From NCBI GenBank assembly GCA_034027115.1, contig GCA_034027115.1_4703.1: a stretch of DNA of 44,537 nt. The stretch is one strand, 5' to 3'. The number at the start of each line of letters is the position of its first letter. Positions within the stretch are counted from its first letter, which is position 1. The position numbers and the translations under genes are program-made. The DNA is from a phage. Positions 9,657 through 35,177 of the stretch are shown here, one piece after another. The notes beneath the pieces were generated by a model. The model ran no database searches, was not told the origin of the DNA, and saw only the letters and a program-made list of their open reading frames with translations.

Positions 9657-9672
9657 GTCTCACATGTGAGAC
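9657..9672. repeat. Copy 1 of conserved 16-bp perfect palindrome GTCTCACATGTGAGAC.
   Basis: Exact sequence read; immediately upstream of a phage promoter. Confidence 0.9.
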
Positions 9673-9674
9673 TT

Positions 9675-9697
9675 ATTTACCGGACACTATAGGATAG
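9675..9697 (+). promoter_or_regulatory. Phage RNAP promoter (ATTTACCGGACACTATAGGATAG).
   Basis: Matches the window's own consensus and the SP6-type CACTATAG core. Confidence 0.6.
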
Positions 9698-9839
9698 CCG
9701 TCGGAGACGGGAAAGAAAAGGGAAGATAAAGGATATAAAAGGAAGTAATAGGTATTAAAGCCTATATAGGTTATCTAGGAATACCTATTACCTTCTTCCT
9801 TCCTCTTATTACTACTTAGAGGAAGGGCAGATCTAGGTT

Positions 9840-9855
9840 GTCTCACATGTGAGAC
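9840..9855. repeat. Copy 2 of palindrome GTCTCACATGTGAGAC.
   Basis: Exact sequence read; again directly upstream of a promoter-like site. Confidence 0.9.
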
Positions 9856-9860
9856 TTCGT

Positions 9861-9883
9861 ATTTACCGGACAGTATAGATAAG
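9861..9883 (+). promoter_or_regulatory. Phage promoter-like site, variant (ATTTACCGGACAGTATAGATAAG).
   Basis: One core mismatch (CAGTATAG instead of CACTATAG); second of two tandem promoters after the RNAP gene. Confidence 0.5.
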
Positions 9884-9908
9884 ACTAACTTACTTTGGAG
9901 ATTTAACC

Positions 9909-10037
9909 ATGCGCAACTTCGAAAAGATGGCCCGTAAAGCTAACCGTTTTGACATGGAAGAAGGGCAGAAGAAAGGCAAGAAGCTGAATAAAACTGTCCG
10001 TGACCGTGCATCTAAACGCGCTGCGTGGGAGTTCTAA
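9909..10037 (+). CDS. Possible small basic protein (42 aa) directly upstream of primase-helicase.
   Basis: GGAGA SD 8 nt upstream of ATG; K/R-rich; stop 3 nt before the primase ATG; below the ORF-track length cutoff. Confidence 0.35.
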   Translation: MRNFEKMARKANRFDMEEGQKKGKKLNKTVRDRASKRAAWEF

Positions 10038-10040
10038 GTT

Positions 10041-12029
10041 ATGGCTATTATTCAGAATGTACCGTGTCCTGCCTGTCAAAAGAATGGACATGATATTACT
10101 GGCAACCATCTTATGATATTTGAGGATGGCGCTGGTTACTGTAACCGTGGTCACTTCCATGATAATGGGAAGCCTTATTACCATAAGCCAGAGGGTGGCA
10201 CCGAGATAACCGAGTTACCTATTACTGGCAATATCAAATATACACCTTCTCAATTCAAAGAAATGGAGAAGGAAGGGAAGATAAGCGACCCTAAGCTACG
10301 CGCCATCGCTCTTGGTGGTATGCGTATGAAAGACCGTTGGGAGGTCATGAATGAGCAAGAAAGGGCAGACCAAGAAGCAGAGTGGAAACTTGATGTTGAA
10401 TGGTTCCTCACGCTTAAGCGTAAGAACCTTGTATCCCGTCACATTCGAGGTGACATCGCAGCAATGTACGATGTGCGCGTTGGACACGATGAAGAGGGAA
10501 GAGTCAACCGTCACTATTATCCACGATATGAAAAGGGTGTGCTTGTTGGAGCAAAATGCCGGACGTTGCCGAAGGATTTTAAGTTCGGACACCTAGGTAA
10601 ACTCTTTGGTATGCAAGATCTTTTCGGTATGAACACTTTGTCTCACGTGTTAGACAAGGGGAGACGAAAGGATTGCTTGCTTATTGTAGGCGGTGAACTT
10701 GATGCACTAGCAGCGCAGCAGATGCTCCTTGATTCTGCCAAGGGTACTAAGTGGGAAGGCCAGCCATACCATGTATGGTCTGTCAACAAAGGCGAGTCTT
10801 GTCTTGAAGAGATAGTGCAAAACCGTGAGCATATCGCCCAATTCAAGAAGATTATATGGGGTTTTGATGGAGATGAGGTAGGGCAGAAGCAGAATCAGCA
10901 AGCGGCTCGCCTGTTTTCTGGCAAATCCTATATCCTTGAATACCCCTCTGGTTGCAAAGATGCTAACAAGGCATTGATGGCTGGCAAGGCCAAAGAGTTT
11001 GTTGATGCATGGTTTAATGCCAAGTCATCTGATGAAGTCTTTGGTAGCCAGATTAAATCTATCGCCTCTCAAAGGGATAAGCTCAAGGCTGCACGTCCAG
11101 AGCAAGGACTATCATGGCCTTGGCCTAAGCTGAACAAGGTAACGCTAGGTATTCGTAAGAACCAACTTATCATTGTAGGCGCAGGCTCTGGTGTAGGTAA
11201 GACTGAGTTCCTTCGTGAAGTAGTTAAGCACCTCATTGAAGAACACGGTGAATCTGTAGGCATCATTTCGACAGAAGACCCGATGGTCAAGGTGTCCCGT
11301 GCTTTTATCGGCAAGTGGATTGATAAGCGTATTGAGTTACCGCCAACCAACGACCCGAAAGAAGATGGATACCGTGAGGTGTTCGACTACACCGAGGAAG
11401 AGGCTAACGCCGCCATTGATTATGTAGCTGATACAGGTAAGCTGTTTGTAGCTGACCTAGAGGGTGACTATTCGATGGAAAAGGTAGAGCAAACTTGCCT
11501 AGAGTTTGAGGCTATGGGCATTTCTAATATCATCATTGATAACTTAACGGGGATTAAATTAGATGAGCGTGCTTTTGGTGGGAAGGTTGGTGCACTTGAT
11601 GAATGCGTCAAGCGGATTGGTACTATCAAAGACCGACACCCGGTTACTATATTCCTTGTATCACACCTTACACGTCCTCCGGCAAACCGTACCCAACACG
11701 AAGAAGGTGGCGAGGTTATCCTTTCTGACTTCCGAGGTTCAGGCGCTATCGGATTCTGGGCATCTTACGCCTTGGGGATTGAGCGTAATACAAGAGCTGA
11801 AACGCTTGATGAACGGACTACCACGTACATCTCATGTGTCAAAGACCGCGACCAAGGTATCTACACTGGAACCAAGGTCATGCTTAAGGGTGACATTCAA
11901 ACCGGACGTTTAATGGAACCACAAGCCCGTACTAAGTCATTTGATACAGGTGAAGCAAGGCAACAAGAAGTGCCGGATTTACCGGACACTATAGAAGAGA
12001 CAACTTTTGACGATGAACAGGAGTTTTAA
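10041..12029 (+). CDS. DNA primase/helicase (T7 gp4-like) with acidic C-terminal tail ending in Phe.
   Basis: N-terminal Cys4 zinc ribbon (CPACQKNGH...GYCNRGH), helicase Walker A (GAGSGVGKTEF), C-terminal ...TTFDDEQEF. Confidence 0.95.
   Translation: MAIIQNVPCPACQKNGHDITGNHLMIFEDGAGYCNRGHFHDNGKPYYHKPEGGTEITELPITGNIKYTPSQFKEMEKEGKISDPKLRAIALGGMRMKDRWEVMNEQERADQEAEWKLDVEWFLTLKRKNLVSRHIRGDIAAMYDVRVGHDEEGRVNRHYYPRYEKGVLVGAKCRTLPKDFKFGHLGKLFGMQDLFGMNTLSHVLDKGRRKDCLLIVGGELDALAAQQMLLDSAKGTKWEGQPYHVWSVNKGESCLEEIVQNREHIAQFKKIIWGFDGDEVGQKQNQQAARLFSGKSYILEYPSGCKDANKALMAGKAKEFVDAWFNAKSSDEVFGSQIKSIASQRDKLKAARPEQGLSWPWPKLNKVTLGIRKNQLIIVGAGSGVGKTEFLREVVKHLIEEHGESVGIISTEDPMVKVSRAFIGKWIDKRIELPPTNDPKEDGYREVFDYTEEEANAAIDYVADTGKLFVADLEGDYSMEKVEQTCLEFEAMGISNIIIDNLTGIKLDERAFGGKVGALDECVKRIGTIKDRHPVTIFLVSHLTRPPANRTQHEEGGEVILSDFRGSGAIGFWASYALGIERNTRAETLDERTTTYISCVKDRDQGIYTGTKVMLKGDIQTGRLMEPQARTKSFDTGEARQQEVPDLPDTIEETTFDDEQEF
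11977..11999 (+). promoter_or_regulatory. Phage promoter (ATTTACCGGACACTATAGAAGAG) embedded in the 3' end of the primase-helicase gene.
   Basis: Full consensus match; lies inside codons for ...VPDLPDTIEE. Confidence 0.6.
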
Positions 12030-12190
12030 TGGAAATTATTAAACCAGTATTGAATATCGGTATTGAGATCCTATTCATGCTTGTGATCGCAGATTATGCT
12101 GCACGATATGGCTTCAAGAAAGCAGTGAAACTTATCGTTGCATCTGGTTTTATGATGTCAATGTTCTTTATTGTAACACGCCTTATCTAG
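12029..12190 (+). CDS. Possible small membrane protein (53 aa).
   Basis: ATG overlaps the primase stop (TAATG); highly hydrophobic translation (ILFMLVIADY...FMMSMFFIV); below ORF-track cutoff. Confidence 0.35.
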   Translation: MEIIKPVLNIGIEILFMLVIADYAARYGFKKAVKLIVASGFMMSMFFIVTRLI

Positions 12191-12203
12191 TGTATTTATC
12201 AGG

Positions 12204-12227
12204 GCTTGTCTCACATGTGAGACAGGC
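12204..12227. repeat. Copy 3 of the palindrome, extended form GCTTGTCTCACATGTGAGACAGGC, followed by CTCTTATT.
   Basis: Exact read; extended stem of about 11 bp with one G-U pair; U-rich 3' flank suggests terminator or processing hairpin. Confidence 0.85.
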
Positions 12228-12256
12228 TCTTATTAAGTACATTAAATAACTGGAGA

Positions 12257-12946
12257 TTGATTATGTATAAATTAGTATTGAATGTAGGTGATTATGTTCG
12301 TAACATCAATGAAGCCTCACGTCGTTATCGTTGCCGTGGTGTAGTGGCTCGTGTAAGTGAGAACATGTATCATGTAGAATATGATGATGGTATTAAGGCT
12401 TCTTATCACAAGAAAACCGCACATAAATATCTTGAAAAGGTTGTAGAGGTAAGCAATCAATGTAAGTGCATACATGATGAGGTTTGCGATAAATGTGCTC
12501 GCCAGATGCTTAAGAATTTCCTAGCCCCTCTTTATTATGGTGCTGGTCCTCAAACACTAGCAGAGTACATGGCAGAAAAGAAAACCACACTCAAGAAAGA
12601 GCGTCGCAATGTAATCACTGGTAAGACTCAGAGTGAGATGATTAAGCAATGTGGCACTGCATTAGGTGTTACACAGTTCAATACTCGTGCATTGGGTAAA
12701 TCCACAGGACAAGCTATGGTGAAAATTGGTGAAGCTATGATGCACCCAAATGTGCCTGTGCGAATCTTGGATGTTGACTATGCAATCACAGAGCATGGCA
12801 CACCACGGCGTGTAGCTAATGATCATTTCGCCGACACTATAGAAGGTATTATTCGTAAGCAAGGGTTGAAGGGTCTTCACATCTTAAATGGTGAAGAATT
12901 ACTGTACCTGCCTATCGTTACTGAAGAAACATACGTGAATATCTAA
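12257..12946 (+). CDS. Hypothetical protein (229 aa).
   Basis: GGAG SD; uninterrupted ORF; no recognisable motif. A promoter-like ATTTCGCCGACACTATAGAAGG sits inside it at 12825..12846. Confidence 0.6.
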   Translation: MIMYKLVLNVGDYVRNINEASRRYRCRGVVARVSENMYHVEYDDGIKASYHKKTAHKYLEKVVEVSNQCKCIHDEVCDKCARQMLKNFLAPLYYGAGPQTLAEYMAEKKTTLKKERRNVITGKTQSEMIKQCGTALGVTQFNTRALGKSTGQAMVKIGEAMMHPNVPVRILDVDYAITEHGTPRRVANDHFADTIEGIIRKQGLKGLHILNGEELLYLPIVTEETYVNI

Positions 12947-12956
12947 GGAGTTAATC

Positions 12957-13175
12957 ATGACTAAGGTATTAATTTATATGCGTGGACCTCATAAATGCTA
13001 TGCAGTTGTAGCACCAAATGGCGTTAAGCCTTATCGTACTTCAAAAAGATTGGCATTAATAGGTGCTAGTAGTAGTGCAAGTTTCCAAATGGAACTTTTT
13101 GGTCATCGGACTGAAAGGCAATTCCGTGAGGATTTTAAAGTCATTGGCAGTTTCATGGTGAAATATGCAGAATAA
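12957..13175 (+). CDS. Hypothetical protein (72 aa).
   Basis: AGGAG SD upstream of ATG. Confidence 0.45.
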   Translation: MTKVLIYMRGPHKCYAVVAPNGVKPYRTSKRLALIGASSSASFQMELFGHRTERQFREDFKVIGSFMVKYAE

Positions 13176-13351
13176 ACATAGTCTTAGAATGTTCGATGGT
13201 CATGAAGACCTGCAAGCCAAGATTACTAACCAAGCCTTCCTGTTCGCACAGTTAACTATGGCTGAGGCCAAGAAGAATAGTCTCACTCGTGAACAGGTTA
13301 TCAAGGAAAGTGAAGTGAAACGTAAGATTCGCAGTCGATAAGTCAAGGGTT

Positions 13352-13367
13352 GTCTCACGTGTGAGAC
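13352..13367. repeat. Copy 4 of the palindrome, variant GTCTCACGTGTGAGAC, with extended stem and U-rich tail.
   Basis: Exact read: ggttGTCTCACGTGTGAGACagcc then ttttatc. Confidence 0.85.
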
Positions 13368-13492
13368 AGCCTTTTATCATGTTGATTGGAGGTGCATTAT
13401 GCCACGTGATTATGATTCTGATTGGGACTACTATGACTCAATGAATCCAAAACCAGAACGTTCAGATGATTACTACGAAACAGAGGCAATGT

Positions 13493-13711
13493 ATGAAAAC
13501 TATTAAAGTCAGTAAGGTTTGCTCTTGCGGTAAAGGTTATCGCAGTCGTATTGATGGTAAGTGTGGACATTGTAGGTCTAAGAAAGAGGCTGCTTTGTTT
13601 GACAAGTACCACAATGAATTAGCCTATAACTACCCACATCTAACACCTAATTCTTTATTAGGGCTTGGTTATAGGGCTAAATACTTTGGAGCAATCTATG
13701 AAATCAATTGA
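13493..13711 (+). CDS. Small Cys-rich (zinc-ribbon-like) protein, hypothetical.
   Basis: C-x-C...C-x-x-C pattern (VCSCGKGY...GKCGHCRSKK); start ambiguous (13466 or 13493). Confidence 0.4.
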   Translation: MKTIKVSKVCSCGKGYRSRIDGKCGHCRSKKEAALFDKYHNELAYNYPHLTPNSLLGLGYRAKYFGAIYEIN

Positions 13712-16244
13712 TTGGAAGAAGGAGGCAGAAGGTCGTATCCTCGTGATGGATGCGGAAGCTAAAGGACTCCTTGACGCTATCCGATATGGACACCGTGAAG
13801 ATGTGCATATCATTTGCTGCATGGATTTGCTTACTACCGAGGAGTTTCTCTTCTTTGACCCGTATGAGATGCGTGACCCTGAAGCAAGAGAACGCCTGAA
13901 GGAATGGGAAGGTCATCAAGACGGAACCTTGGTTGATGGTGTTAACTTCCTGAAGCATTGTGAAGCTATTGTGTCACAGAACTTCCTAGGGTATGACGGA
14001 CTTCTCTTTGAGAAAGCATTCCCTGATATTTGGAAAGGCTTTAACTATACCGAGAAGCGCGGTAAGGGCAGACTCCGTGCTGACCTGTGTCCGGTGCGAG
14101 TCATGGATACGCTGGTGATGAGTCGCCTGTTAAACCCCGATAGACGCCTTCCTCCGCAAGCATATGCCAAAGGTATGGGTAACGTCGCCCCTCACTCAAT
14201 TGAGGCGCACGGCATCCGTATAGGTCGCTATAAACCGGAGAACGAGGACTGGTCTAAACTAACTGACCACATGGTTCACCGTGTACGTGAGGACGTGGCG
14301 ATTGGTCGTGACTTGTTCCTCTGGCTCTTTAACGGGGAATGGATGGAGCACAAACGCCGTGGCGTGAATAAACGCACGGGCCTAGGCATTGAGACAGCCT
14401 TCCACATGGAGTCCATTGTGGCGCTGGAGATGAGCCGTCAGGCCGAGCGCGGGTTCCGTCTGGACATCGACAAGGCTTTGGCCCGATGCGAAGAATTGGA
14501 CGCTAAGATTGATGAGACAGTCGCAGCGTTCCGCCCTCACATGCCTATGCGTATCAAGTCTAAACCTTTTAAACCGGAAGAAAAGAATGAAGTATGCCAA
14601 CGCGCAAATGAGTATGGAGCTAGCAACAATATACCTACTGTCCTTGACCTCTCACACTTTCTTCATGCCGAGAGACGAGGAGATCGCAAGACAGTATGGA
14701 GTGTCACTACTAAGTCTGGTGATTGGTCGGCTAGTGTCAAGAAAGACTTTCCTCACCTTAGAGGAAACCGTAATGACACGCCAAGCATCAAGTGGATTGG
14801 CGCTTACTCGCCTGTTACTTTCGAAGAGATTCCCTTGGGTAACAGGGCTACAGTTAAGCAAGTGCTCTATAAGTATGGATGGAAAGGTGTTGAATTTAAC
14901 GATACCGAGCAAGCCCATCTCGATGAGCACGGAGTGTTACCAGAACCTTGGAGTGGTAAGATAAATGAAAAGTCCCTCACTTTATGGCAAGAAAGAGCCG
15001 CACGTGAAGGTAAAACAGTCCCTGATTGGTGCTTGGGTATCGCTGCATGGTACATACTCGTATCCCGTCGTGGTCAGATACTCAATCGTGGTGACGTTGA
15101 AGCCTTCAACGAGAAGGGAACGTGGCCCTCGCAGGTTGGTGTACGAAAGTGTCGCGGCCTTGTACCTGTAGCATTCAACAAGGAGCTAGGAATTACTGCG
15201 CAGCAATACTACGAGAGGTACGGATGTTGGCCTACGTCTGACAAAGATGACGGAGAGTGGCGTGTTCCAGCTGTTGCTATTAGTATTGGCACTTCTACGT
15301 TCCGTATGCGTCATCGTAACGTGGTTAATATTCCTGCCCGTGGCTTGTATCCTTTACGTGATTTATTCATAGCAGGGAAAGGCAAGCTAATCCTTGGTTG
15401 TGACGGTGCAGGTCTTGAACTGCGTGTCCTGTCTCACTTCATGAATGATCCTGAGTACCAAGAGATTGTACTGCACGGTGATATTCATACGCATAACCAG
15501 ATGAAGGCTGGTCTTCCTAAGCGTGATATGGCGAAGACGTTTATATACGCCTTCCTCTATGGTTCTGGTATAGCCAACCTTGCAGCAGTCTGCGGTGTTA
15601 CTGAGGAAGAAATGAAGGAAGTTGTGGCAAGATTCGAGATTGAACTACCGTCTCTTGCACGTCTTCGTGAGAATGTTATCGCACAAGGTAACAAGTTTGG
15701 CTACCTGCAAGCACCTGATGGGCATTGGGGTCGCATCCGCATGTCTGGTGGTGAACTTAAAGAGCACACGATGCTTAACGTATTACTCCAGATGACTGGC
15801 TCTTTGTGTATGAAATATGCATTAGTCAAGGCATTTGCAGTAATGCGCAAGGAAGGTGTAGCTTTGGATGCTATGGGAAATCCTTGTGGTGTGGCTAACG
15901 TGCATGATGAAATCCAGATGGAAGTTCCTGAAGAGGAGGTCTTGTATCTTAACTACGACCTACCTTTCACCTTAGATGGGTTCGAAACAGAGAAGGCTGC
16001 TGTGAAAGCAGTTTTCGATGCAGAGGAGAAACGTGTTCATGTGGATTCTGAAGGACGTATGTGGTCTGCTGCAAACCTCGTTAGCGTTGATGCTGATGCT
16101 GGTGTATTGCATTGCCAGCGCCGTTATCACCGTGCAGGTCATATCATTGCCGACGCCATGACTTGGGCAGGGCAGTATCTGAAGATGCGTTGCCCGATGG
16201 CAGGAGAATATAAGATTGGCGCAAGCTGGAAGGAAACACACTGA
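13698..16244 (+). CDS. DNA polymerase, family A (T7 gp5-like).
   Basis: Pol I motifs (KTFIYAFLYGSG; VHDEIQMEV); GGAG SD before ATG 13698 (the ORF track start at 13665 overlaps the upstream gene). Confidence 0.95.
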   Translation: MKSIDWKKEAEGRILVMDAEAKGLLDAIRYGHREDVHIICCMDLLTTEEFLFFDPYEMRDPEARERLKEWEGHQDGTLVDGVNFLKHCEAIVSQNFLGYDGLLFEKAFPDIWKGFNYTEKRGKGRLRADLCPVRVMDTLVMSRLLNPDRRLPPQAYAKGMGNVAPHSIEAHGIRIGRYKPENEDWSKLTDHMVHRVREDVAIGRDLFLWLFNGEWMEHKRRGVNKRTGLGIETAFHMESIVALEMSRQAERGFRLDIDKALARCEELDAKIDETVAAFRPHMPMRIKSKPFKPEEKNEVCQRANEYGASNNIPTVLDLSHFLHAERRGDRKTVWSVTTKSGDWSASVKKDFPHLRGNRNDTPSIKWIGAYSPVTFEEIPLGNRATVKQVLYKYGWKGVEFNDTEQAHLDEHGVLPEPWSGKINEKSLTLWQERAAREGKTVPDWCLGIAAWYILVSRRGQILNRGDVEAFNEKGTWPSQVGVRKCRGLVPVAFNKELGITAQQYYERYGCWPTSDKDDGEWRVPAVAISIGTSTFRMRHRNVVNIPARGLYPLRDLFIAGKGKLILGCDGAGLELRVLSHFMNDPEYQEIVLHGDIHTHNQMKAGLPKRDMAKTFIYAFLYGSGIANLAAVCGVTEEEMKEVVARFEIELPSLARLRENVIAQGNKFGYLQAPDGHWGRIRMSGGELKEHTMLNVLLQMTGSLCMKYALVKAFAVMRKEGVALDAMGNPCGVANVHDEIQMEVPEEEVLYLNYDLPFTLDGFETEKAAVKAVFDAEEKRVHVDSEGRMWSAANLVSVDADAGVLHCQRRYHRAGHIIADAMTWAGQYLKMRCPMAGEYKIGASWKETH

Positions 16245-16526
16245 TGGATAGGCTTGACATTATTTGCCTATTCTTCACTCTCTTTCTTACACTCCTTATG
16301 CTTGCTTGTTATGGGAGTATGAGACTAGATATACCTGATGAAGAAGAGGGTTACGACTAATGCAAACTGCTTTTATTATTCTTGGTATCATATTATTTAT
16401 GGTAGTACTCTGGGCCTTCTCTGGCATTGACCCGGATTGTGATGGTAACTACGACTGAGTTATACTCAAGGTCACTTACGAGTGGCCTTTATGGATAACT
16501 TATCCCTACTTATTTTGTCTAACATG

Positions 16527-16548
16527 ATTTACTGGACACTATAGAAGG
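16527..16548 (+). promoter_or_regulatory. Phage promoter, consensus copy (ATTTACTGGACACTATAGAAGG).
   Basis: Exact consensus in an intergenic position. Confidence 0.7.
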
Positions 16549-16613
16549 AAAGCCTAGACAATCTAGGTTTATAAGGTAGTATAGGTAATTAAGTAAATAT
16601 AGGAGATATAAAC

Positions 16614-16991
16614 ATGTCTATGGTAACTACTCTGGTATTTGTAGCTCAATACTTTCGTGGTCTGGCTAATAAGTTCAAGTCCAAGGCTATCAAAGTTATT
16701 GAGTCTCGCATCGAGGCAGTACAGGCAGAGCAAGTTAAAGTTGAAGAACATCGTAGTTCTAAAATGATTGACTGCCATAACCGCTACTATGCATCTCGTG
16801 ATGACCTTAATGCACGCCAAGTCAAAGAGGTTGAAGAGATGCTGGCACGTCACCAGCAAGAGCGCGACAGTCTGAAAGCTGAATTTGAAGAGAACAAGGC
16901 ATCCATCGCCCTTGTACATCAAGCCGCATCTGACAGCCTGAAGAAAGAGATTGTTATGCTGGAAATTGAGTTAGACAACCTGACCAAATAA
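16614..16991 (+). CDS. Hypothetical protein (125 aa), hydrophobic N-terminus plus coiled-coil.
   Basis: SD TAGGAG; heptad-like charged C-terminal region. Confidence 0.55.
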   Translation: MSMVTTLVFVAQYFRGLANKFKSKAIKVIESRIEAVQAEQVKVEEHRSSKMIDCHNRYYASRDDLNARQVKEVEEMLARHQQERDSLKAEFEENKASIALVHQAASDSLKKEIVMLEIELDNLTK

Positions 16992-17010
16992 TTACTGGAC
17001 ACTATAGAAC
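16990..17010 (+). promoter_or_regulatory. Phage promoter variant (AATTACTGGACACTATAGAAC).
   Basis: Near-consensus match immediately after the upstream stop. Confidence 0.55.
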
Positions 17011-17153
17011 AATAGGTCGGCTTAGTTCGGCCTATGATTGTAAAGTGTTGAACCTTATTGTGCATCTTGCACAACCCGATGCTATATCGGGCTTTCTAGC
17101 GAGTACATGCTTGTGCTCAGTACAAAGCTAACTGACAATAGGAGACTAAATAA

Positions 17154-17960
17154 ATGGCACGTGGTGATTTTGATTTTGGTGCTCAGGTTACTAAGGCTGA
17201 AGGTAAAGTATTTAAGAACCCTGAAGTTGGTGATCATGAAGCAGTAATCTCTGGCATCATTCATGTTGGTTCCTTCCAAGATATTTTTAAGAAAGGTAAT
17301 ACCACTGAGGTTAAGAAGCCAGCAAACTTTGTTCTTGTTAAGATTATCCTGATGGGTGACGACGACAAGAATGAAGATGATTCTCGCATGGAACAGTGGA
17401 TGGCTGTGCCTCTGAAGTCTGGTGACAAGGCAACCTTGACTAAGTTCCTGAATGCAGTTGACCCTAAAGAGCTGCTTGGTGGTTTCGATGACTTCATCGG
17501 TGAATGCCTGACTGCAACTATGGTTGGCTCTGGCGACAAGAATGATGATGGTACTTTCAAGTATGTTAACTGGAAAGGCTTTGGCGGTATGCCTGATAAG
17601 TTGAAGAAGCTTGTACTGGCTCAGGTAGAAGAGGAAGGTCTGTCTATGACAGGTCATATCACCTTCGACAAGCTGACCAAAGAAATCCTTGATGACATCC
17701 CAGCTAACTTGGTGCGTCAATACTTCCTTAATGAAACACCTCGTGGTAAGAACCTGTCTGTTGCTGGTTCTCACGTAGAAGCAATCATTAAAGCTGCTCG
17801 TGAAGAAGACCCAGAGTGGAAGAAAGCCAAGAAGAAAGATGACGAGGATGCTACTCCAGCTAATCGTAAATCTCTGGATACTGGTGAGTCTGTTCCACAG
17901 GAAGTACCTGAAGCAGAAGATACTCCTGCACCGGAGATGGATGAGGACGCGGAATATTAA
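17154..17960 (+). CDS. Abundant-looking protein with acidic C-terminal tail ending in Tyr (268 aa); candidate single-stranded DNA-binding protein (function inferred).
   Basis: AGGAG SD; codon usage rich in ctg/cgt/ggt/gct; C-terminus ...EAEDTPAPEMDEDAEY resembles the acidic aromatic tail of T7 gp2.5. Confidence 0.7.
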   Translation: MARGDFDFGAQVTKAEGKVFKNPEVGDHEAVISGIIHVGSFQDIFKKGNTTEVKKPANFVLVKIILMGDDDKNEDDSRMEQWMAVPLKSGDKATLTKFLNAVDPKELLGGFDDFIGECLTATMVGSGDKNDDGTFKYVNWKGFGGMPDKLKKLVLAQVEEEGLSMTGHITFDKLTKEILDDIPANLVRQYFLNETPRGKNLSVAGSHVEAIIKAAREEDPEWKKAKKKDDEDATPANRKSLDTGESVPQEVPEAEDTPAPEMDEDAEY

Positions 17961-18189: not shown

Positions 18190-18205
18190 GTCTCACATGT
18201 GAGAC
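18190..18205. repeat. Copy 5 of palindrome GTCTCACATGTGAGAC.
   Basis: Exact read; 15 nt upstream of a consensus promoter. Confidence 0.9.
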
Positions 18206-18220
18206 AAATCGGTGTCCGGT

Positions 18221-18243
18221 ATTTACTGGACACTATAGAAGAG
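18221..18243 (+). promoter_or_regulatory. Phage promoter, consensus copy (ATTTACTGGACACTATAGAAGAG).
   Basis: Exact consensus. Confidence 0.7.
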
Positions 18244-18292: not shown

Positions 18293-18667
18293 ATGTTCAA
18301 GATTGAAACTATCGTAAACCGTGTTGTTAAAGGTGCTGCTCTGGTATCCGTTGAGTCTTTCATTATCGTCGATGAAGCTGATCAACTGGTAGCTGGTACT
18401 AAGGCTTATGATACTCGTGAAGAAGCTCAGGCTAAGATTGACAGCATGGGTAACTTCGCTGCGGGTCTGGAGTTCGCTCGTGCTTGCTTCCCTGAGCAGG
18501 CTGACAAAGCTCAGATTGGTAAGGCTAATATCGTAGCTGAATATCTGGATTGGATTGCTGCTGGTAAGCCGGTGAAAGAAGTTAAAGCTGCGGAAGAAGT
18601 TGAATCTCCGGCAGTAGAAGAAGTAGCTGCACCGGAAGTTCCGGTAAGCGAAGAAGAAGAGTTTTAA
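18293..18667 (+). CDS. Small acidic protein (124 aa) ending ...VSEEEEF; likely highly expressed; function unknown.
   Basis: AAGGAGA SD; optimal-codon-rich; flanked by a consensus promoter upstream and a hairpin plus T-run downstream. Confidence 0.75.
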   Translation: MFKIETIVNRVVKGAALVSVESFIIVDEADQLVAGTKAYDTREEAQAKIDSMGNFAAGLEFARACFPEQADKAQIGKANIVAEYLDWIAAGKPVKEVKAAEEVESPAVEEVAAPEVPVSEEEEF

Positions 18668-28277: not shown

Positions 28278-28285
28278 TACCTATG

Positions 28286-28318
28286 CCCTATCTACCTTGC
28301 GTAGGTAGGGTTCTTTTT
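28286..28318 (+). terminator. Putative rho-independent terminator after the capsid gene.
   Basis: CCCTATCTACC-ttgcgta-GGTAGGG followed by TTCTTTTT. Confidence 0.55.
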
Positions 28319-28331
28319 GTTAGGAGGATTC

Positions 28332-29069
28332 ATGCCTGTTATTAAACAACAAAGTTACACTGGCTATACTGTCTCAGATGTAGCCTTTCAAGTGATTGAT
28401 AGTAAGCTGGAGGCTGTTAACCTTTGTATGCGAGCCATTGGTCGTGAGGGTGTGGATTCTCTCGACTCAGGCGACCTTGATGCTGAAGATGCTAGCAAAA
28501 TGATTGATATCGTCTCCCAACGTTTCCAATACAACAAAGGCGGTGGCTGGTGGTTCAATCGTGAACCTAACTGGCAGCTTGCACCAGACACGAACGGTGA
28601 GATTAACTTGCCTAATAACTGCCTAGCTGTATTGCAGTGCTACGCATTGGGTGAGAAGAAAGTGCCTATGACTATGCGTGCAGGTAAGCTCTACTCTACT
28701 TGGAGTCACACCTTTGATATGCGTAAGCATGTTAATGCTAATGGTATGATTCGTCTTACCTTACTCACCTTACTACCCTACGAGCATTTACCTACAAGTG
28801 TAATGCAGGCTATTGCCTATCAAGCTGCTGTAGAGTTTATTGTGTCTAAGGATGCAGATCAGACTAAGCTAGCCACTGCGCAGCAGATAGCCACTCAGCT
28901 TCTTATGGATGTACAATCTGAGCAAATGTCACAGAAGCGATTAAACATGCTGGTACATAACCCCACTCAGCGTCAGTTTGGTATCATGGCTGGTGGCTCT
29001 CAGAATGTACCTGCTTACTCTCATTCACCTTATGAGAGTTGGGCGCTCCGTCCGTGGGAGGATCGTTAA
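28332..29069 (+). CDS. Tail tubular protein A (T7 gp11-like).
   Basis: AGGAGG SD before ATG 28332; conserved GGGWWFN motif (T7 gp11 has GWTFN); position. Confidence 0.88.
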   Translation: MPVIKQQSYTGYTVSDVAFQVIDSKLEAVNLCMRAIGREGVDSLDSGDLDAEDASKMIDIVSQRFQYNKGGGWWFNREPNWQLAPDTNGEINLPNNCLAVLQCYALGEKKVPMTMRAGKLYSTWSHTFDMRKHVNANGMIRLTLLTLLPYEHLPTSVMQAIAYQAAVEFIVSKDADQTKLATAQQIATQLLMDVQSEQMSQKRLNMLVHNPTQRQFGIMAGGSQNVPAYSHSPYESWALRPWEDR

Positions 29070-31471
29070 TGGAAGTACAAGGTTCATTAGGTAGACAAAT
29101 CCAAGGGATTAGCCAGCAGCCGCCAGCGGTACGCTTGGATGGTCAGTGCACAGCTATGGTTAATATGATACCTGATGTAGTGAATGGTACTCAATCACGC
29201 ATGGGTACAACTCATATTGCAAAGATACTTGATGCTGGGACTGATGACATGGCTATTCATCATTATCGCAGAGGTGATGGTGATGAAGAGTATTTCTTCA
29301 CGTTGAAGAAAGGACAAGTTCCTGAGATATTTGATAAGTATGGGCGCAAATGTAATGTGACTTCACAAGATGCACCTATGACCTACCTCTCTGAGGTTGT
29401 TAATCCAAGGGAAGATGTACAATTCATGACGATAGCTGATGTTACTTTCATGCTTAATCGTAGGAAAGTAGTTAAAGCTAGTAACAGGAAGTCACCTAAA
29501 GTTGGAAACAAAGCCATTGTGTTTTGTGCGTATGGTCAATATGGTACATCTTATTCCATTGTAATTAATGGGACCAACGCTGCTAGTTTTAAAACACCGG
29601 ATGGTGGAAGTGCAGACCATGTTGAACAAATTCGAACTGAACGTATCACTTCTGAATTGTACTCTAAGTTGCAGCAATGGAGCGGTATGAGTGACTATGA
29701 AATACAAAGAGACGGTACTAGTATATTTATCGAGAGACGGGATGGTGCTAGCTTTACAATAACAACCACCGATGGTGCAAAAGGTAAGGACTTAGTGGCT
29801 ATCAAGAATAAAGTTAGCTCTACTGACCTACTCCCTTCTCGTGCGCCTGCTGGTTATAAAGTACAAGTGTGGCCTACTGGCAGCAAACCTGAGTCTCGTT
29901 ACTGGCTGCAAGCTGAGCCTAAAGAGGGAAACCTTGTATCTTGGAAAGAAACAATAGCTGCCGATGTATTACTTGGGTTTGATAAAGGCACAATGCCTTA
30001 TATCATTGAACGTACAGGTATCTTAGACGGCATAGCTCAATTCAAGATAAGACAAGGCGATTGGGAAGATCGTAAAGTAGGAGATGACCTGACTAACCCT
30101 ATGCCTTCTTTTATTGATGAAGAAGTACCTCAGACAATAGGTGGGATGTTCATGGTGCAGAACCGCCTATGCTTTACAGCAGGTGAAGCTGTTATTGCCT
30201 CTCGTACATCATACTTCTTCGATTTCTTTCGTTATACGGTTATCTCTGCATTGGCGACTGACCCATTTGATATTTTCTCAGATGCTAGTGAAGTCTACCA
30301 GCTAAAACATGCAGTGACCTTAGATGGCGCTACCGTGTTGTTCTCTGATAAGTCACAATTCATACTGCCAGGAGATAAGCCTTTAGAGAAGTCAAATGCA
30401 TTGCTTAAGCCTGTTACAACATTTGAAGTGAACAATAAAGTGAAGCCAGTAGTAACTGGTGAATCGGTAATGTTTGCCACTAATGATGGTTCTTACTCTG
30501 GTGTACGAGAGTTCTATACAGACTCTTATAGTGACACTAAGAAGGCACAAGCAATCACAAGTCATGTGAATAAACTCATCGAAGGTAACATTACCAACAT
30601 GGCAGCAAGCACCAATGTCAACAGGTTACTTGTCACTACCGATAAGTATCGTAACATAATCTACTGCTACGATTGGTTATGGCAAGGAACAGACCGTGTA
30701 CAATCAGCATGGCATGTGTGGAAGTGGCCTATAGGTACAAAGGTGCGAGGTATGTTTTATTCTGGCGAATTACTTTACCTGCTCCTTGAGAGAGGCAATG
30801 GTGTCTATCTGGAGAAGATGGATATGGGTGATGCATTAACCTATGGTTTAAATGATCGCATCCGAATGGATAGACAGGCAGAGTTAATCTTCCAGCATTT
30901 CAAAGCAGAAGATGAATGGGTATCTGAACCACTCCCTTGGGTTCCTACTAACCCAGAACTTTTAGATTGCATCTTAATCGAGGGTTGGGATTCATATATT
31001 GGTGGTTCTTTCCTATTCAAATACAACCCCGGTGATAACACCTTGTCTACAACCTTTGATATGCATGATGATAGCCACGTAAAAGCGAAGGTTATTGTTG
31101 GTCAGATTTACCCTCAAGAGTTTGAACCAACACCTGTAGTTATCAGAGATAGGCAAGACCGTGTATCCTATATTGATGTACCTGTTGTGGGATTAGTTCA
31201 CCTTAATCTTGATATGTATCCTGATTTCTCCGTGGAGGTTAAGAATGTGAAGAGGGGTAAAGTACGCAGGGTGCTAGCGTCAAACCGTATAGGTGGTGCT
31301 CTCAACAATACAGTAGGTTATGTTGAACCAAGAGAAGGTGTCTTCAGATTCCCACTGAGAGCTAAGAGTACGGATGCTGTTTATCGTATTATTGTAGAAT
31401 CACCTCACACATTCCAGCTTCGTGATATTGAGTGGGAAGGGAGCTACAATCCAACCAAAAGGAGGGTCTAA
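29069..31471 (+). CDS. Tail tubular protein B (T7 gp12-like).
   Basis: ATG overlaps the upstream stop (TAATG); N-terminal GISQQPPAVRLDGQ resembles the gp12 N-terminus (GISQQP); about 800 aa. Confidence 0.9.
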   Translation: MEVQGSLGRQIQGISQQPPAVRLDGQCTAMVNMIPDVVNGTQSRMGTTHIAKILDAGTDDMAIHHYRRGDGDEEYFFTLKKGQVPEIFDKYGRKCNVTSQDAPMTYLSEVVNPREDVQFMTIADVTFMLNRRKVVKASNRKSPKVGNKAIVFCAYGQYGTSYSIVINGTNAASFKTPDGGSADHVEQIRTERITSELYSKLQQWSGMSDYEIQRDGTSIFIERRDGASFTITTTDGAKGKDLVAIKNKVSSTDLLPSRAPAGYKVQVWPTGSKPESRYWLQAEPKEGNLVSWKETIAADVLLGFDKGTMPYIIERTGILDGIAQFKIRQGDWEDRKVGDDLTNPMPSFIDEEVPQTIGGMFMVQNRLCFTAGEAVIASRTSYFFDFFRYTVISALATDPFDIFSDASEVYQLKHAVTLDGATVLFSDKSQFILPGDKPLEKSNALLKPVTTFEVNNKVKPVVTGESVMFATNDGSYSGVREFYTDSYSDTKKAQAITSHVNKLIEGNITNMAASTNVNRLLVTTDKYRNIIYCYDWLWQGTDRVQSAWHVWKWPIGTKVRGMFYSGELLYLLLERGNGVYLEKMDMGDALTYGLNDRIRMDRQAELIFQHFKAEDEWVSEPLPWVPTNPELLDCILIEGWDSYIGGSFLFKYNPGDNTLSTTFDMHDDSHVKAKVIVGQIYPQEFEPTPVVIRDRQDRVSYIDVPVVGLVHLNLDMYPDFSVEVKNVKRGKVRRVLASNRIGGALNNTVGYVEPREGVFRFPLRAKSTDAVYRIIVESPHTFQLRDIEWEGSYNPTKRRV

Positions 31472-32196
31472 TGGCTATAGGTTCAGCCGTTATGGCTGGT
31501 ATGTCTTCTATTGGTAGTATGTTTGCAGGTAGCGGTGCAGCAGCCGCAGCAGGAGGGACAGCCGCCGCAGGTGGCGGAGGTTTGCTTGGCTCCCTTGGTA
31601 GTTTCTTAGGAGGTTCTTCTGCTGGCTTCTCTAATGCAGGACTGCTTAGTGCAGGTATGCAAGGTCTTGGTCTTCTAGGCAATCTTTTTGGTGGAAGTGA
31701 TGAAGCCAAAGCTATGAAGAAAGCTCAGGAGGAGCAATGGCGGCAGCAGTTAATTGCTACACAAGAAGCATATAAGACAGTAGCAGATGCAGAACGCTCT
31801 GCTGCTAAACAGTATCATGCAGATGCAATCAGTAATCAGGCTTCACTGCTACAGCAAAGAGCACAGGTTGCATTACTTGCTGGTGCTACTGGTACTGGTG
31901 GTAACTCTGTGTCTTCTATGCTGAATGACTTAGCAGCAGAAGGCGGAAGGAACCAGAGTACAATTATCGATAACTATGAGAATCAGAAGATTAACTTCAC
32001 CAACCAGCTTAAGTCCATCCAACGGGGTGGTCAGATGCAGATGCGTGAGTTTAAGAAACCTTCTGCCGTGAGCACCTTGGTGCAAGGTATACCGAGTCTG
32101 GCATCTGCCTATGTAACAGGTAGTAAGTCCGGCATGGCTTTAGGTAAAGCTTTAACTGATTCTCGTACATATTCATCTGGAACAAGAGGTATTTAA
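31471..32196 (+). CDS. Internal virion protein (Gly/Ala-rich N-terminus, about 241 aa).
   Basis: AAGGAGGG SD; start overlaps tail tube B stop; position equivalent to T7 gp13/gp14. Confidence 0.75.
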   Translation: MAIGSAVMAGMSSIGSMFAGSGAAAAAGGTAAAGGGGLLGSLGSFLGGSSAGFSNAGLLSAGMQGLGLLGNLFGGSDEAKAMKKAQEEQWRQQLIATQEAYKTVADAERSAAKQYHADAISNQASLLQQRAQVALLAGATGTGGNSVSSMLNDLAAEGGRNQSTIIDNYENQKINFTNQLKSIQRGGQMQMREFKKPSAVSTLVQGIPSLASAYVTGSKSGMALGKALTDSRTYSSGTRGI

Positions 32197-35144
32197 TGGC
32201 AATTGAGCGACAAGCAGTACAAGGTCTGCCACAAGTGCAGGCCACTTCTCCTAATGTCATGACCTTTGCACCTCAGCAAGTTGGAGGTGTGGAGGCTGGC
32301 GTAGCTTCTACCTCCGGTAGTCGATTTATCGAAGACCTTATTCGAGCAGCCAGTAGTGTAGCTGATGTTACCACGGGTATCCTTAATCAGAAGATTGAGG
32401 AGGATAAGGTTGTTCAAATGGAACAGGCATATAATGGATTAATGCCCTCTGAGGATGCAACTCGTGGTGGCGCTCGTGCTAACATGCTTGTCAAAGCTCA
32501 ACTGCTAGCTAATGATGAAGCAGCACGAATGAAAGACATGGCTACTCGTTTCCAAGGAACGGATGACGAGTGGACACAACTTATGGTTGACTCTCGTAAT
32601 GAGATGCAGAATAAGCTGTTCCAGCAATACCCTGAGTTGCAAGGTGACAAAGATACTATGCGTATGGTCACTAATGTCTTCCAAGAACAGCAGCCTCAGA
32701 TTTGGGCTACACGAACCCAGCATAAACTTGACCGTGAACAAGCAGACCGTGAGGATACCTTTGACGGGCGAGTGGCTTCTACTTGGGATTCTAATATTGA
32801 CCCTGAAGCCTCTGGCTATGCTTTACAGGAACGAATCCGCGAAGGTCTTACTCAAGGATTACTACCTGAACAGATGCACAAGAAGTTAGTCCAGCGAGCA
32901 ATTTCACTTGCACAAGGCGGTGATGTTAGCATGGCTGAAGCCCTGAAGTATGTGAAGGACGATAAGGGTGTTTCTGTTTATGCTAAGAATCCACAGCTTA
33001 TCACAGCCATCACTAGTGGTAATGCAGTTTGGGCTAGGAATAATGTAGCTGATGTAACTCGTATGTCTTTCGAAGTTAAAGAATCATACCTTGCAGGTGA
33101 TTTAACTGATGAAGAATTGTTGGAACGAGCACAGCACATTAATAATCTGACAGGTAACTCTGTCTTCTCTAACCCAGAACTAGAGGCACTGATGCGCCAA
33201 CGAGCTAAGCAGAATGCAGAGCTAGGTGCAATGCAGGATATGCGCCGTGAGCTTTACTCCGACCGCCTGACTGGCTTCCAAGGTAAGACTGATAAAGAGA
33301 AGAAGGCTTACATTGATGTTATCAAACAAGATAGCCAACTTTATGCAGACCAGCAAATCAAACAACGTGGCTTGGACCCTTACAGTCAAGAGGCTGAAGC
33401 TATTCGTGGTGCAGTGGAAGTGCAGCGCCTACAATTCATGAACTCCAAAGGCTTAGTGGATGATACCTTTGAGTCTCGTATCAAAGCCATGGAATCTATG
33501 CTATCTCCTGAGCACTTTGCCAAGGGCGAACCACAAGAGTTGATGACTATTCGCCAGTTGTGGGAACAGTTGCCAGAAGAGAGCCGAGGTGTCTTTGGTG
33601 ACACGGTGAATGGCTACATGGATAACTACAACACTGCACTACAAATGGGAGAGACACCTTTGCAGGCTGCAAGGTTTGCGCGTGAAGCACAGCAGAAATT
33701 CTCTCGTACTGAGAAGGAAACCAAGAAGTTCAACTCAGCTATTGGAGATGCACTGGATGAGGTATCTGGTGCTGGCTGGTTCGATGGTAAAACCGAAGTG
33801 TCAGACTTAGGTAAAGCTATTGCAGAAGAGGAGTTACGAGCTAAGGCTAATATGCTGTGGTCTAGTGGTATGCGTAACATGGATTCCATCAAGAAGGCTT
33901 TAATTACTTGGGGCAATAAACGCTACACTCAATCAGAGGATGCAAAGACTTCCGGTGGCTATTTCATTAAAGGTGATTACACTTCTGCATCTGATATGCT
34001 TATGTCAGTTGGGAAAGGCGTAAATCCTACTGATGTACCTCTGGCGCTTGGTAGGTATGTAGAAACACAGATGCCAGAATTGAAGAAGGAGCTTCAAGAG
34101 TGGGAAACTAAAGATGATATATACATTGATTACAATGAACAGAAAGGTACTTTCGTGATTCGTGCTGGTGCAGCAGGTCGCCCTCTTTCTGGAGTAATCC
34201 CTGTAACCTCTTTAGATACCACTTCACTACTAGATTCTGCCTATCAGAAGAAAGTAGAGGAACGAGATAAAGGCGAGTATGTTCACCCTTATCGTACAGA
34301 TATTGGTGCACAAGAGCCTATGCCAGCTAAACCAACTGCCAAAGATATTGGTAAATTTGGACTAGCTAACTTCCTCATGTCTTCTGCTTTTGCTTCTGGT
34401 GAGAATCTGCCTTCTAACTTCGAGATTAACTATCGAGGTAATATGCAACAATTCTATGACAAGCTAGCTATGGATGAGAATAAAGATAAAGTTGGCTTTA
34501 ATAAGGCAACTGGAACCTTTACTCCATATAAAGATGCTCACGGTGAGTCTATCGGTTACGGTCATTTCTTAACGGAAGAAGAGAAGCGAAACGGGTATAT
34601 TAAGATTGGTGATGAACTAGTTCCCTATCGAGGGTCTATGTCTCAGCTTACAGAGAGCAAGGCTCGCGCTCTTATGGAGCAAGATGCCAAGAAGCATGTG
34701 CCTCCTACTCGTGACTGGAAGATTCCGTTTGACCAGATGCATCCTGCACAGCAACGTGGCTTGATGGATTTAACCTACAATTTAGGTAAAGGTGGAATCC
34801 AGAACTCACCGCGTGCTCTTGCTGCATTCAAAGCTGGTAAGCTTACGGAAGGCTTTATCGAAATGCTGGGCACTGCATCAAGTGAAGGTAAGCGTATCCC
34901 TGGTCTACTGAAGCGACGCGCTGAGGCATACAATATGGCATCTGCTGGTGGTGTGCCTAAGATTACCGAAGTGGAGACTCGTGAAGATGGCTCCATGTGG
35001 GTTAGGTTTGGTGGACCTATGCCAGCAGGTTCTGTCTCGGCATGGACTCATAAACGTATTGGCGCGGATGGTTGGTATCAGGTTTATGAGGCTGCACCTA
35101 CCAAGTTAGCTAAAGGTTCTAAGGTAGGTAAATTTAAGTTGTAG
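32196..35144 (+). CDS. Internal virion (ejection) protein, 982 aa, with an embedded lysozyme-like (T4-lysozyme/GH24-type) domain in the C-terminal third.
   Basis: KDAHGESIGYGHFLTEEE...MDLTYNLGKGG...GLLKRRAEAYNMA resembles the catalytic N-terminus and C-terminal lobe of phage lysozymes; position equivalent to T7 gp15. Confidence 0.85.
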   Translation: MAIERQAVQGLPQVQATSPNVMTFAPQQVGGVEAGVASTSGSRFIEDLIRAASSVADVTTGILNQKIEEDKVVQMEQAYNGLMPSEDATRGGARANMLVKAQLLANDEAARMKDMATRFQGTDDEWTQLMVDSRNEMQNKLFQQYPELQGDKDTMRMVTNVFQEQQPQIWATRTQHKLDREQADREDTFDGRVASTWDSNIDPEASGYALQERIREGLTQGLLPEQMHKKLVQRAISLAQGGDVSMAEALKYVKDDKGVSVYAKNPQLITAITSGNAVWARNNVADVTRMSFEVKESYLAGDLTDEELLERAQHINNLTGNSVFSNPELEALMRQRAKQNAELGAMQDMRRELYSDRLTGFQGKTDKEKKAYIDVIKQDSQLYADQQIKQRGLDPYSQEAEAIRGAVEVQRLQFMNSKGLVDDTFESRIKAMESMLSPEHFAKGEPQELMTIRQLWEQLPEESRGVFGDTVNGYMDNYNTALQMGETPLQAARFAREAQQKFSRTEKETKKFNSAIGDALDEVSGAGWFDGKTEVSDLGKAIAEEELRAKANMLWSSGMRNMDSIKKALITWGNKRYTQSEDAKTSGGYFIKGDYTSASDMLMSVGKGVNPTDVPLALGRYVETQMPELKKELQEWETKDDIYIDYNEQKGTFVIRAGAAGRPLSGVIPVTSLDTTSLLDSAYQKKVEERDKGEYVHPYRTDIGAQEPMPAKPTAKDIGKFGLANFLMSSAFASGENLPSNFEINYRGNMQQFYDKLAMDENKDKVGFNKATGTFTPYKDAHGESIGYGHFLTEEEKRNGYIKIGDELVPYRGSMSQLTESKARALMEQDAKKHVPPTRDWKIPFDQMHPAQQRGLMDLTYNLGKGGIQNSPRALAAFKAGKLTEGFIEMLGTASSEGKRIPGLLKRRAEAYNMASAGGVPKITEVETREDGSMWVRFGGPMPAGSVSAWTHKRIGADGWYQVYEAAPTKLAKGSKVGKFKL

Positions 35145-35161
35145 TATCTAACTCAAGGCTT

Positions 35162-35177
35162 GTCTCACATGTGAGAC
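35162..35177. repeat. Copy 6 of palindrome GTCTCACATGTGAGAC (extended stem, U-rich tail).
   Basis: Exact read: ggcttGTCTCACATGTGAGACaggtctttatg. Confidence 0.9.

Follow-up and report, generated by a model that had tools for sequence, protein, structure and literature searches.

On plasmid RK2, the dimeric helix-turn-helix (HTH) protein KorB recognizes OB, a short palindrome that occurs about 12 times, either directly upstream of promoters, at a distance from them, or within genes. The ParB-parS and SopB-sopC centromere systems (the 16-bp parS, the dispersed SopB sites of the phage-plasmid N15) also use 16-bp dispersed palindromes, which are often intragenic and concentrated in one part of the genome, and their specificity depends on a small number of HTH residues that evolve together with the site. 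At the level of RNA, the RNase III sites of bacteriophage T7 (R0.3, R0.5, R1.1, R4.7, and R18.5) are two-stem hairpins with an asymmetric loop and CUCAAGG/CCUUUAUGAU flanks, located in intergenic regions of the transcribed strand and often next to promoters. Here, we describe a 16-bp palindrome, GTCTCAC(A/G)TGTGAGAC, that shares features with all of these. It was found in a 44,537-nucleotide (nt) stretch of phage DNA (contig GCA_034027115.1_4703.1; this whole stretch is called the window below). The window comprises the whole genome, circularly permuted and 44.5 kb long, of a Vectrevirus (K1E/K1-5 group, Molineuxvirinae, SP6-like), and across 10 kb it has 98.5% identity to Escherichia phage EEc4. 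SP6 and K1-5/K1E are classic model and therapy phages, which have to pass from early to middle expression and begin replication in the absence of the gp0.7, gp2, and lysozyme of T7. With a probability that we put at roughly 60%, the palindrome is a multi-copy operator site for an early protein of this phage, gp6, and three of its copies are nested in the tips of RNase III hairpins.

How far do these likenesses go? Copy number and placement are similar to those of KorB/OB, while the site is 16 bp long (GTCTCAC-N2-GTGAGAC) instead of the 13 bp of OB. Unlike KorB, gp6 has no detectable ParB N-terminal (CTP-binding) domain and carries a J-like C-terminal domain; no ParA/IncC or KorA partner was seen, and gp6 is only a predicted binder, encoded by a strictly lytic phage of the T7 supergroup that has its own RNA polymerase (RNAP). 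The specificity of gp6 appears to lie in a few HTH residues co-evolving with the site, as in ParB and SopB. In contrast to these two, it belongs to a lytic phage with no obvious partition function, neither a ParA nor a ParB-box domain was seen, and the spacing between half-sites is flexible, either 2 or 3 bp. Compared with the T7 sites, the palindrome copies with extended stems have the same hairpin architecture, flanks, and location, while they have an upper stem longer by about 3 bp, with the palindrome in place of its apex, and cleavage is a prediction from sequence. Finally, 10 of 32 gp6 homologues, and the structural neighbours of gp6 in BFVD, match DUF3102 (PF11300), a family of phage and plasmid proteins to which no function was assigned in the literature mentions that we found.

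Conserved palindromes and co-variation with gp6

The exact motif occurs six times in the window, at 9657, 9840, 12208, 13352 (with the central G), 18190, and 35162, and in none of 100 dinucleotide-preserving shuffles. The six near-identical palindromes reported by the first-pass annotation are thus far beyond chance, and all of them are intergenic as it had stated. Its count of six holds for exact copies. If up to three mismatches are allowed, two degenerate copies that it had missed appear at 4322 and 10640, against 0.21 expected, and the total becomes eight. The copies at 9657, 9840, and 18190 do lie upstream of phage promoters, at the short distances listed in Table 1, and the one at 4322 precedes the first sigma70-like early promoter, with 34 nt between it and the -35 hexamer (TTGACA). 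Stems of 13 bp, with a folding energy (dG) of -18 to -20 kcal/mol, are formed around 12208, 13352, and 35162; the other copies form 6-bp stems of about -7 kcal/mol.

The palindrome is present in every relative examined. Across these Molineuxvirinae and more distant lineages it is conserved as GTC-xxxx-N2/3-xxxx-GAC, with 8-12 copies per genome. Orthologous places are the left end, the interval between the RNAP-gene terminator and the first phage promoters (1-3 copies), the helicase gene, the helicase-gp10 and pre-gp12 intergenic regions, the region before the gp18 promoter, and the gp35-gp36 intergenic region. The left-end copy has an orthologue in all relatives, and it adjoins a phage promoter in Era103 and BigMira. 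Copies within one genome carry one variant, which is a sign of concerted evolution: GTCTCAC in Vectrevirus and in Erwinia/Pantoea phages, GTCCAAC in Klebsiella, Pectobacterium, Proteus, and Lelliottia phages, and a mixture of GTCTAAC and GTCCAAC in SP6. Even the copy inside the helicase gene follows the variant of each phage, encoding S-N-V-L-D in phages of the CCAAC/CTAAC types. Five of the seven stem positions do not vary at all, even between lineages with only 33-67% protein identity. The spacing is looser than the stem: BigMira keeps the stem with a 3-nt centre at five of its six sites (6721, 9265, 10343, 14585, and 30707), so that both spacings occur in one genome, and 3-bp spacers are also found in the lineages L166 (5529 and 11716) and L158 (13665). 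The GTCTCAC motif is absent from L158, which has a family of its own, GTCTACA-NN-TGTAGAC, with 12 copies in 22 kb at analogous promoter-proximal places, six of them being perfect palindromes inside open reading frames (ORFs).

We screened 21 core proteins for columns whose residues tell GTCTCAC-type and GTCCAAC-type genomes apart. In the gp6 alignment a single column does so, and its position is within the recognition helix of an HTH. The protein is one of the universally conserved proteins without assigned function; its HTH-like segment is DFLAYVESEFGIKKAQCYKLMSV, and the residue in question is K66 within FGIKKAQCYKLM. Every GTCTCAC-type phage compared carries K there, even Era103 (44% identity) and the remote lineage L032 (33%). 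All GTCCAAC-type phages compared carry N and SP6 carries H, while L158 has R together with a change of Q to Y in the helix. In this way 21 of 21 lineages are concordant: K with GTCTCAC in seven, N or H with GTC(C/T)AAC in 11, R with GTCCCAC in one that keeps the Q, and R with GTCTAC(A/C) in two in which Q is replaced by Y. For seven of them, the site types were predicted and the contigs then retrieved when the link between gp6 and the site had already been proposed. Two of these seven have K and GTCTCAC, three have N and GTCCAAC or GTCTAAC, one has R (with Y) and GTCTACC, and one has R (with Q) and GTCCCAC. The expectations for K and N were borne out at base pair 5 in five of the seven, and at other positions the half-sites of N and R lineages departed from the literal prediction. 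In all 19 lineages that keep the helix Q, K or R goes with C:G at base pair 5 and N or H goes with A:T. Lys or Arg opposite C:G and Asn or His opposite A:T are ordinary preferences between amino acids and bases. Switches between K and N occurred independently within the Vectrevirus-related and the Era103-related clades.

The fold of gp6 provides moderate, model-based evidence, and the co-variation is the stronger of the two. A first AlphaFold2 (AF2) model from a shallow alignment had a pLDDT of 50 and was not used. With a diverse alignment, an N-domain (residues 10-122) and a C-domain (250-306) were predicted with confidence, joined by a disordered linker and a 40-residue helix. The model resembles the DNA-binding domains of KorB, ParB, and SopB together with a J-like domain; a Foldseek comparison with the PDB gave nothing significant. 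The C-domain (6716-6892, residues 250-307) is the most conserved part of the protein (FKSxCxYARLGLSxEE...KAxRELVKLGYGxGH), and it lacks the catalytic HPD tripeptide of J domains. Thus, it is likely to be a module for protein-protein interaction. As for other candidates, Pfam and PHROG scans of ten middle-region proteins revealed no DNA-binding family, and no ParA-like gene is present in the annotations of K1E, SP6, and Era103.

Another way to make copies alike is gene conversion or recombination among dispersed repeats, which might act as junctions for module exchange like the PeSL cassettes of T4 and have no dedicated binding protein, so that the correlation with gp6 would merely reflect linkage or ancestry. 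T7-like phages recombine very actively, hybrid half-sites resemble partial conversion tracts, and single "foreign" variants with otherwise identical flanks exist in K1-5 and CrRp3. Nevertheless, we regard this explanation as improbable: it does not account for stem positions that stay invariant among such diverged lineages, copies 28 kb away from gp6 still follow the gp6 type, K/N and site switches are matched in two separate clades, and gp6 is predicted to have a DNA-binding fold.

Some minor observations belong to this comparison. In BigMira, a further half-site stands alone 11 nt before the post-RNAP copy. In L158, the -10 hexamer of one sigma70-like early promoter (TTGACA-17 nt-TACAAT) falls within a palindrome, GTCTACAATTGTAGAC (2198-2213), which is the classical arrangement of a repressor operator. 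An exact-motif scan of IMG/VR gave mostly single chance matches, and a cluster in L074 proved to be false, coming from a collagen-like repeat gene. In three unrelated viral contigs (L084, 2411-2512; L111, 8702-8812; L130, 7782-7820), two or three close copies of GTCTCAC-YR-GTGAGAC stand beside AT-rich, promoter-like sequence, and they look like operators for some repressor with the same half-site.

Hairpins of the RNase III type and the reading of DNA or RNA

The first-pass annotation had proposed that the palindromes might form a family of RNase III processing sites. This holds for the three extended copies, 12208, 13352, and 35162, and fails for 9657, 9840, and 18190. The T7 RNase III sites were placed according to Dunn and Studier (1983), and their positions were checked by folding. 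When folded side by side, the T7 sites and the extended copies have in common a lower stem, a 2-nt/3-nt internal loop, and an upper stem, and the minimum-free-energy shapes of the three copies are identical to those of R1.1 and R0.5. Flanks of the form (A)CUCAAGG...CCUUUAUGAU are shared as well: R1.1 reads ACUCAAGG-stem-CCUUUAUGAUUG and the 35162 copy ACUCAAGG-stem-UCUUUAUGAUAG, and the flanks of the latter hairpin, ACTCAAGG...TCTTTATGAT, match those of R1.1, R0.5, and R18.5. A covariance model was trained on seven T7 RNase III sites only, and the window was searched without filters (89 kb). The copies at 35162, 13352, and 12208 were found full-length on the + strand with E-values of 1.6e-4, 0.06, and 0.11 (bit scores in Table 1), and the three rank second, fourth, and fifth among all matches. 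T7 R6.5, which was outside the training set, was recovered by the same model, and the orthologue of the gp35-36 hairpin scored 27-44 bits in seven relatives including Era103. The hairpin of Era103 is present without the palindrome, and therefore the palindrome is an optional apex.

Compensatory changes argue in the same direction. Alignments of 23 (gp9.5-gp10), 28 (gp11-gp12), and nine (gp35-36) orthologues each gave a two-stem consensus in RNAalifold, with five, ten, and seven doubly compensated pairs, respectively. In the 28-sequence set, 98.7% of cells are paired, compared with 30-47% when partners are slid, and the observed covariation was reached in none of 500 shuffles. About 15% of the cells are G.U, so that the structure belongs to RNA of the + strand. 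By these sequence criteria, identification of 12190-12247, 13334-13391, and 35144-35199 as T7-type RNase III processing sites is supported. The copies at 9657, 9840, and 18190 gave no match to the T7-only model at E <= 10, and RNAalifold found no conserved structure in their orthologue alignments beyond the 6-7 bp core hairpin. We also considered them as composite RNase III sites with a promoter in the loop, like R6.5 and R13 of T7, and rejected this for want of a conserved outer stem. Rfam at gathering thresholds detected nothing in the window.

The best match to the T7-only model is a site with no palindrome, CUCAAGGUCACUUACGAGUGGCCUUUAUGG (16457-16506, + strand, 50.4 bits, E 2e-11). Its upper stem is nearly identical to that of T7, the site is identical in K1E and SP6, and it lies 20 nt upstream of the promoter at 16528. 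Like the Era103 orthologue, it lacks the palindrome that tops the extended copies. Weaker + strand matches (E 0.04-0.8) at 1309-1350, 3555-3596, 5058-5105, and 5902-5950 all correspond to stable hairpins between genes; one separates the two tail-spike genes, the rest are in the early region, and they are possible additional processing sites.

Could the hairpins be intrinsic (class I) terminators or attenuators for the phage or host RNAP, as was suggested at first and as SP6 equivalents may be annotated? The extended copies are indeed stable hairpins followed by U-containing sequence, and a terminator consensus scan flagged 9657 and 9840 as terminator-like. It is to be noted that these two are the only copies flagged, and the extended ones are not. 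The extended stems that had been described are real, and the U-rich 3′ flank reported with them is not a terminator tail, since it consists of the internal loop (at about 12232, 13376, and 35186) and the paired lower stem, with covariation, just as in the T7 RNase III sites. The short copies, with their weak stems, have no U-tract in SP6, in ULIP33, or at 18190. In addition, the validated t5 terminator of SP6 is a different and unrelated hairpin, and terminators require neither a common stem sequence nor intragenic copies. A 2024 paper citing the original genome papers counts seven SP6 RNAP terminators (PMC11347151), and the palindrome hairpins may be included in these seven. Altogether, we consider a set of terminators highly improbable.

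Then, is the palindrome in the remaining copies kept for RNA pairing or as a pair of DNA half-sites? A strand test comparing G.U with C.A over the whole family was uninformative until the 217 distinct sites were divided according to context. Within the RNase III hairpins, positions 4/13 and 5/12 pair in 58 of 58, with seven T.G and no C.A. At the other sites, T.G (17) and C.A (18) are equally common, and C.T and A.G hybrids of legitimate half-sites are common too. The intragenic copies of GTCTCAC-type phages are informative in another way. They read GTCTCAC-GT-GTTAGAC (Ser-His-Val-Leu-Asp), and the 3′ half is imperfect because a perfect half would create a TGA stop. The 5′ half is the own half-site of the phage, with a His codon, at the cost of a C.U mismatch, while the Asn codon of other phage types would have kept the pairing. 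Thus, outside the RNase III hairpins it is the half-site that is kept and not the pairing, which indicates that the stand-alone and intragenic copies are read as duplex DNA. Together with the co-variation of gp6, this makes a DNA site for a dimeric protein acting near promoters, one of the options raised at the beginning, the best sequence-based explanation for the whole family.

A view in which all copies act only as RNA would take the 16-mer as the top of RNase III sites or, standing alone, as a 3′-protective or insulating stem-loop before promoters, its sequence being conserved through RNase III preferences or common descent. The core is always paired within the RNA stems of three copies, the changes between variants are formally compensatory (U-A to U.G to C-G; C-G to A-U), and the stem is kept whether the loop is 2 or 3 nt. 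Moreover, a T7-type stem sequence can be strongly conserved between T7 and the window phage, as the 50-bit site at 16457-16506 demonstrates. On the other hand, the equal numbers of G.U and C.A and the persistent C.U and A.G hybrids outside the RNase III hairpins do not fit with pairing, many copies lie in ORFs where ribosomes would unfold hairpins, a hairpin of 6 bp falls short of what RNase III needs and is unmatched by the T7 model, His codons in genes favour the half-site, and the co-variation of gp6 is left unexplained. We therefore judge an RNA-only role unlikely.

Palindromes might also work as single-stranded hairpins or cruciforms in replication or recombination, in the manner of an origin or a primosome site, with gp6 as an origin binder or with no protein at all. 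Of the eight copies, two flank the tandem promoters that follow the RNAP gene, and others are at left-end and mid-region promoters, which parallels the primary and secondary origins of T7. Palindromic RNase III DNA of T7 is sensed as single-stranded hairpins by Lamassu (PMC11707656). This possibility overlaps with the operator reading if gp6 is the binder; taken as an alternative to it, we find it quite improbable, as mismatched hybrids would form no hairpins and 16 bp is short for cruciform extrusion. The host transcription factors considered (CRP, SlmA, MatP, MetJ, NrdR, and DnaA) are not known to have sites matching the palindrome, whose variants differ among phages of the same host. A primase site (GTC in T7 and GCA in SP6) was dropped because the flanks are inconsistent.

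A working model for gp6 and points against it

If gp6 is the binder, the following course of events may be envisaged. The protein would be made from the early transcript of the host RNAP and would dimerize, probably via its long central helix. One KorB/ParB-like HTH domain would then sit on each GTCTCAC half-site, with K66 of the recognition helix reading base pair 5 (C:G); GTCTCACATGTGAGAC is the predicted duplex target. Eight gp6 sites would be available: the early promoter region (4322), three phage-RNAP promoters, the helicase gene, and three short intergenic regions. Those at promoters would be located at about -20 to -35, at the two promoters just after the RNAP-gene terminator and at the one before gp18. 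The primary origin of T7 is at the position of the former two. A flexible linker between the DNA-binding domain and the dimerizing helix would explain why 2- and 3-bp spacers, hybrid half-sites, and the half-site at promoter 16528 are tolerated. What binding would do is a guess, perhaps a KorB-like control of promoter use or of replication initiation at the early-to-middle switch; the positions of the sites at early promoters, at the first phage promoters, and at the gp18 promoter suggest control of that switch, of replication, or of both. In mRNA, a palindrome at the tip of a hairpin extends the upper stem of the processing site with the same sequence. By analogy with T7, RNase III would cut in the 3′ internal loop, and the cuts would separate the gp9.5/gp10, gp11/gp12, and gp35/gp36 messages, leaving a protective 3′ hairpin. 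The nested sites would thereby occupy the part of the hairpin whose sequence RNase III leaves free, where they must also pair, as is observed.

Several points weigh against this interpretation. The distance between site and promoter varies from 0 to 15 bp, which is awkward for an activator of fixed geometry, and gene conversion within the genome could make the copies evolve in concert with no protein involved. The lineages are phylogenetically related, so that 21 of 21 overstates the independent events, and the sequences point to about four to six independent switches. The R-type lineages also tell that one residue does not fully set the site. The ParB N-terminal/CTPase domain and the Pfam DNA-binding families are unmatched in gp6 and 31 homologues, for which DUF3102 is the only Pfam match (best E 6e-5). 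Finally, single "foreign" GTCCAAC-type copies are present in GTCTCAC-type genomes, at 9570 in K1-5 (L003) and at 3222 in CrRp3 (L135), reflecting either relaxed specificity or unused sites. Such copies sit in flanks identical to those of K1E-type phages, which suggests exchange of short tracts between phage lineages at palindrome sites. A third copy of this kind is at 17412 in L140. The gp6 of the window is itself below the Pfam threshold for DUF3102.

A literature search found no account of the palindrome, of RNase III sites in phages like SP6, or of a function of gp6 or DUF3102, although the 2004 genome papers of SP6 and K1-5 were outside that search and may mention the hairpins. We lean, if only slightly, toward regarding this as a previously undescribed system in Molineuxvirinae and related lineages, in which an early KorB/ParB-like protein with a J-like domain, DUF3102-related gp6, co-evolves with 8-12 palindromes, some of them having a dual function in DNA and RNA. 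If so, these phages would have a sequence-specific early DNA-binding protein with a full map of its sites and a simple specificity code, K, N/H, or R against base pairs 5-7, and the widespread DUF3102 phage proteins would receive a first functional lead. The likely annotation of three hairpins would move from terminator to RNase III site, which matters for genome engineering, and one sequence of a compact genome would be constrained at the DNA and RNA levels together. Sequences detectable by palindrome-sensing defences such as Lamassu/DdmABC (PMC11707656) would also be flagged.

Genome layout and neighbouring features

Genes of the window are all on the + strand, and 13 phage promoters were recognized by matches to TTTACYGGACACTATAGRA. 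Positions of the features are collected in Table 1.

Table 1. Palindrome copies, hairpins, and landmark genes of the window in order of position.
Feature	Position	Strand	Remarks
Tail-spike genes	113-3409	+
Genome left end	near 3764
Left-end palindrome copy	4322-4337		symmetric double variant GTCTAACACGTTAGAC; non-coding
gp6 gene	5969-6892	+	307 aa; early gene directly upstream of RNAP gene
RNAP gene	6956-9583	+
Early terminator hairpin	9591-9614		after RNAP gene
Stand-alone palindrome	9657-9672		43 nt past early terminator hairpin; 2-3 nt before promoter 9675-9694
Stand-alone palindrome	9840-9855		5 nt before promoter 9861-9880 (drives gene 8/helicase)
Primase/helicase gene	10041-12029	+
Intragenic palindrome copy	10640-10655		GTCTCACGTGTTAGAC, in primase/helicase ORF; codons S-H-V-L-D
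T7-type RNase III hairpin (predicted), gp9.5/gp10	12190-12247	+	apex palindrome 12208-12223; 15.9 bits
T7-type RNase III hairpin (predicted), gp11 / gp11.5/12	13334-13391	+	apex palindrome 13352-13367; 16.9 bits
DNA polymerase (DNAP) gene	13665-16244	+
Half-palindrome GTCTAACATGA	16517-16527		joined directly to promoter 16528; conserved in K1E-type phages and BP12B
Stand-alone palindrome	18190-18205		15 nt before promoter 18221-18240 (drives gp18)
T7-type RNase III hairpin (predicted), gp35/gp36	35144-35199	+	apex palindrome 35162-35177; 25.9 bits

Between the two promoters that follow the RNAP gene, the segment 9690-9840 includes a tract rich in purines and, at about 9739-9795, a long imperfect inverted repeat, and a second hairpin is found at 9798-9826; the fold z-score of the region is only -2.4. 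T7 has R1.1 and its primary origin at the matching position. BP12B keeps the half-palindrome at promoter 16528 despite a different specificity region of its promoter. At 18210-18236, a GGTGTCC between the palindrome at 18190 and its promoter pairs with the promoter specificity region GGACAC and forms a promoter-sequestering hairpin. This pairing co-varies with promoter specificity, being GGTGCAGCA/TGTTGCAC in L155, CCGCCC/GGGCGG in PP1, and GGTGGTCT/AGACCAC in BigMira.

The gene of gp10 (12257-12946) is flanked by two of the RNase III/palindrome sites and evolves far faster than its neighbours: identity to SP6, ULIP33, PP1, and pKV is 34-49% for gp10 and 77-91% for the helicase and DNAP, and gp10 is absent from Era103. 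The products of gp16 (17154-17960) and gp18 (18293-18667) are acidic and have acidic tails with a terminal aromatic residue (…DEDAEY and …EEEEF), which resemble the C-terminus of the single-strand-binding protein gp2.5 of T7. Judging from its sequence, gp16 is probably the single-strand-binding protein of this phage.

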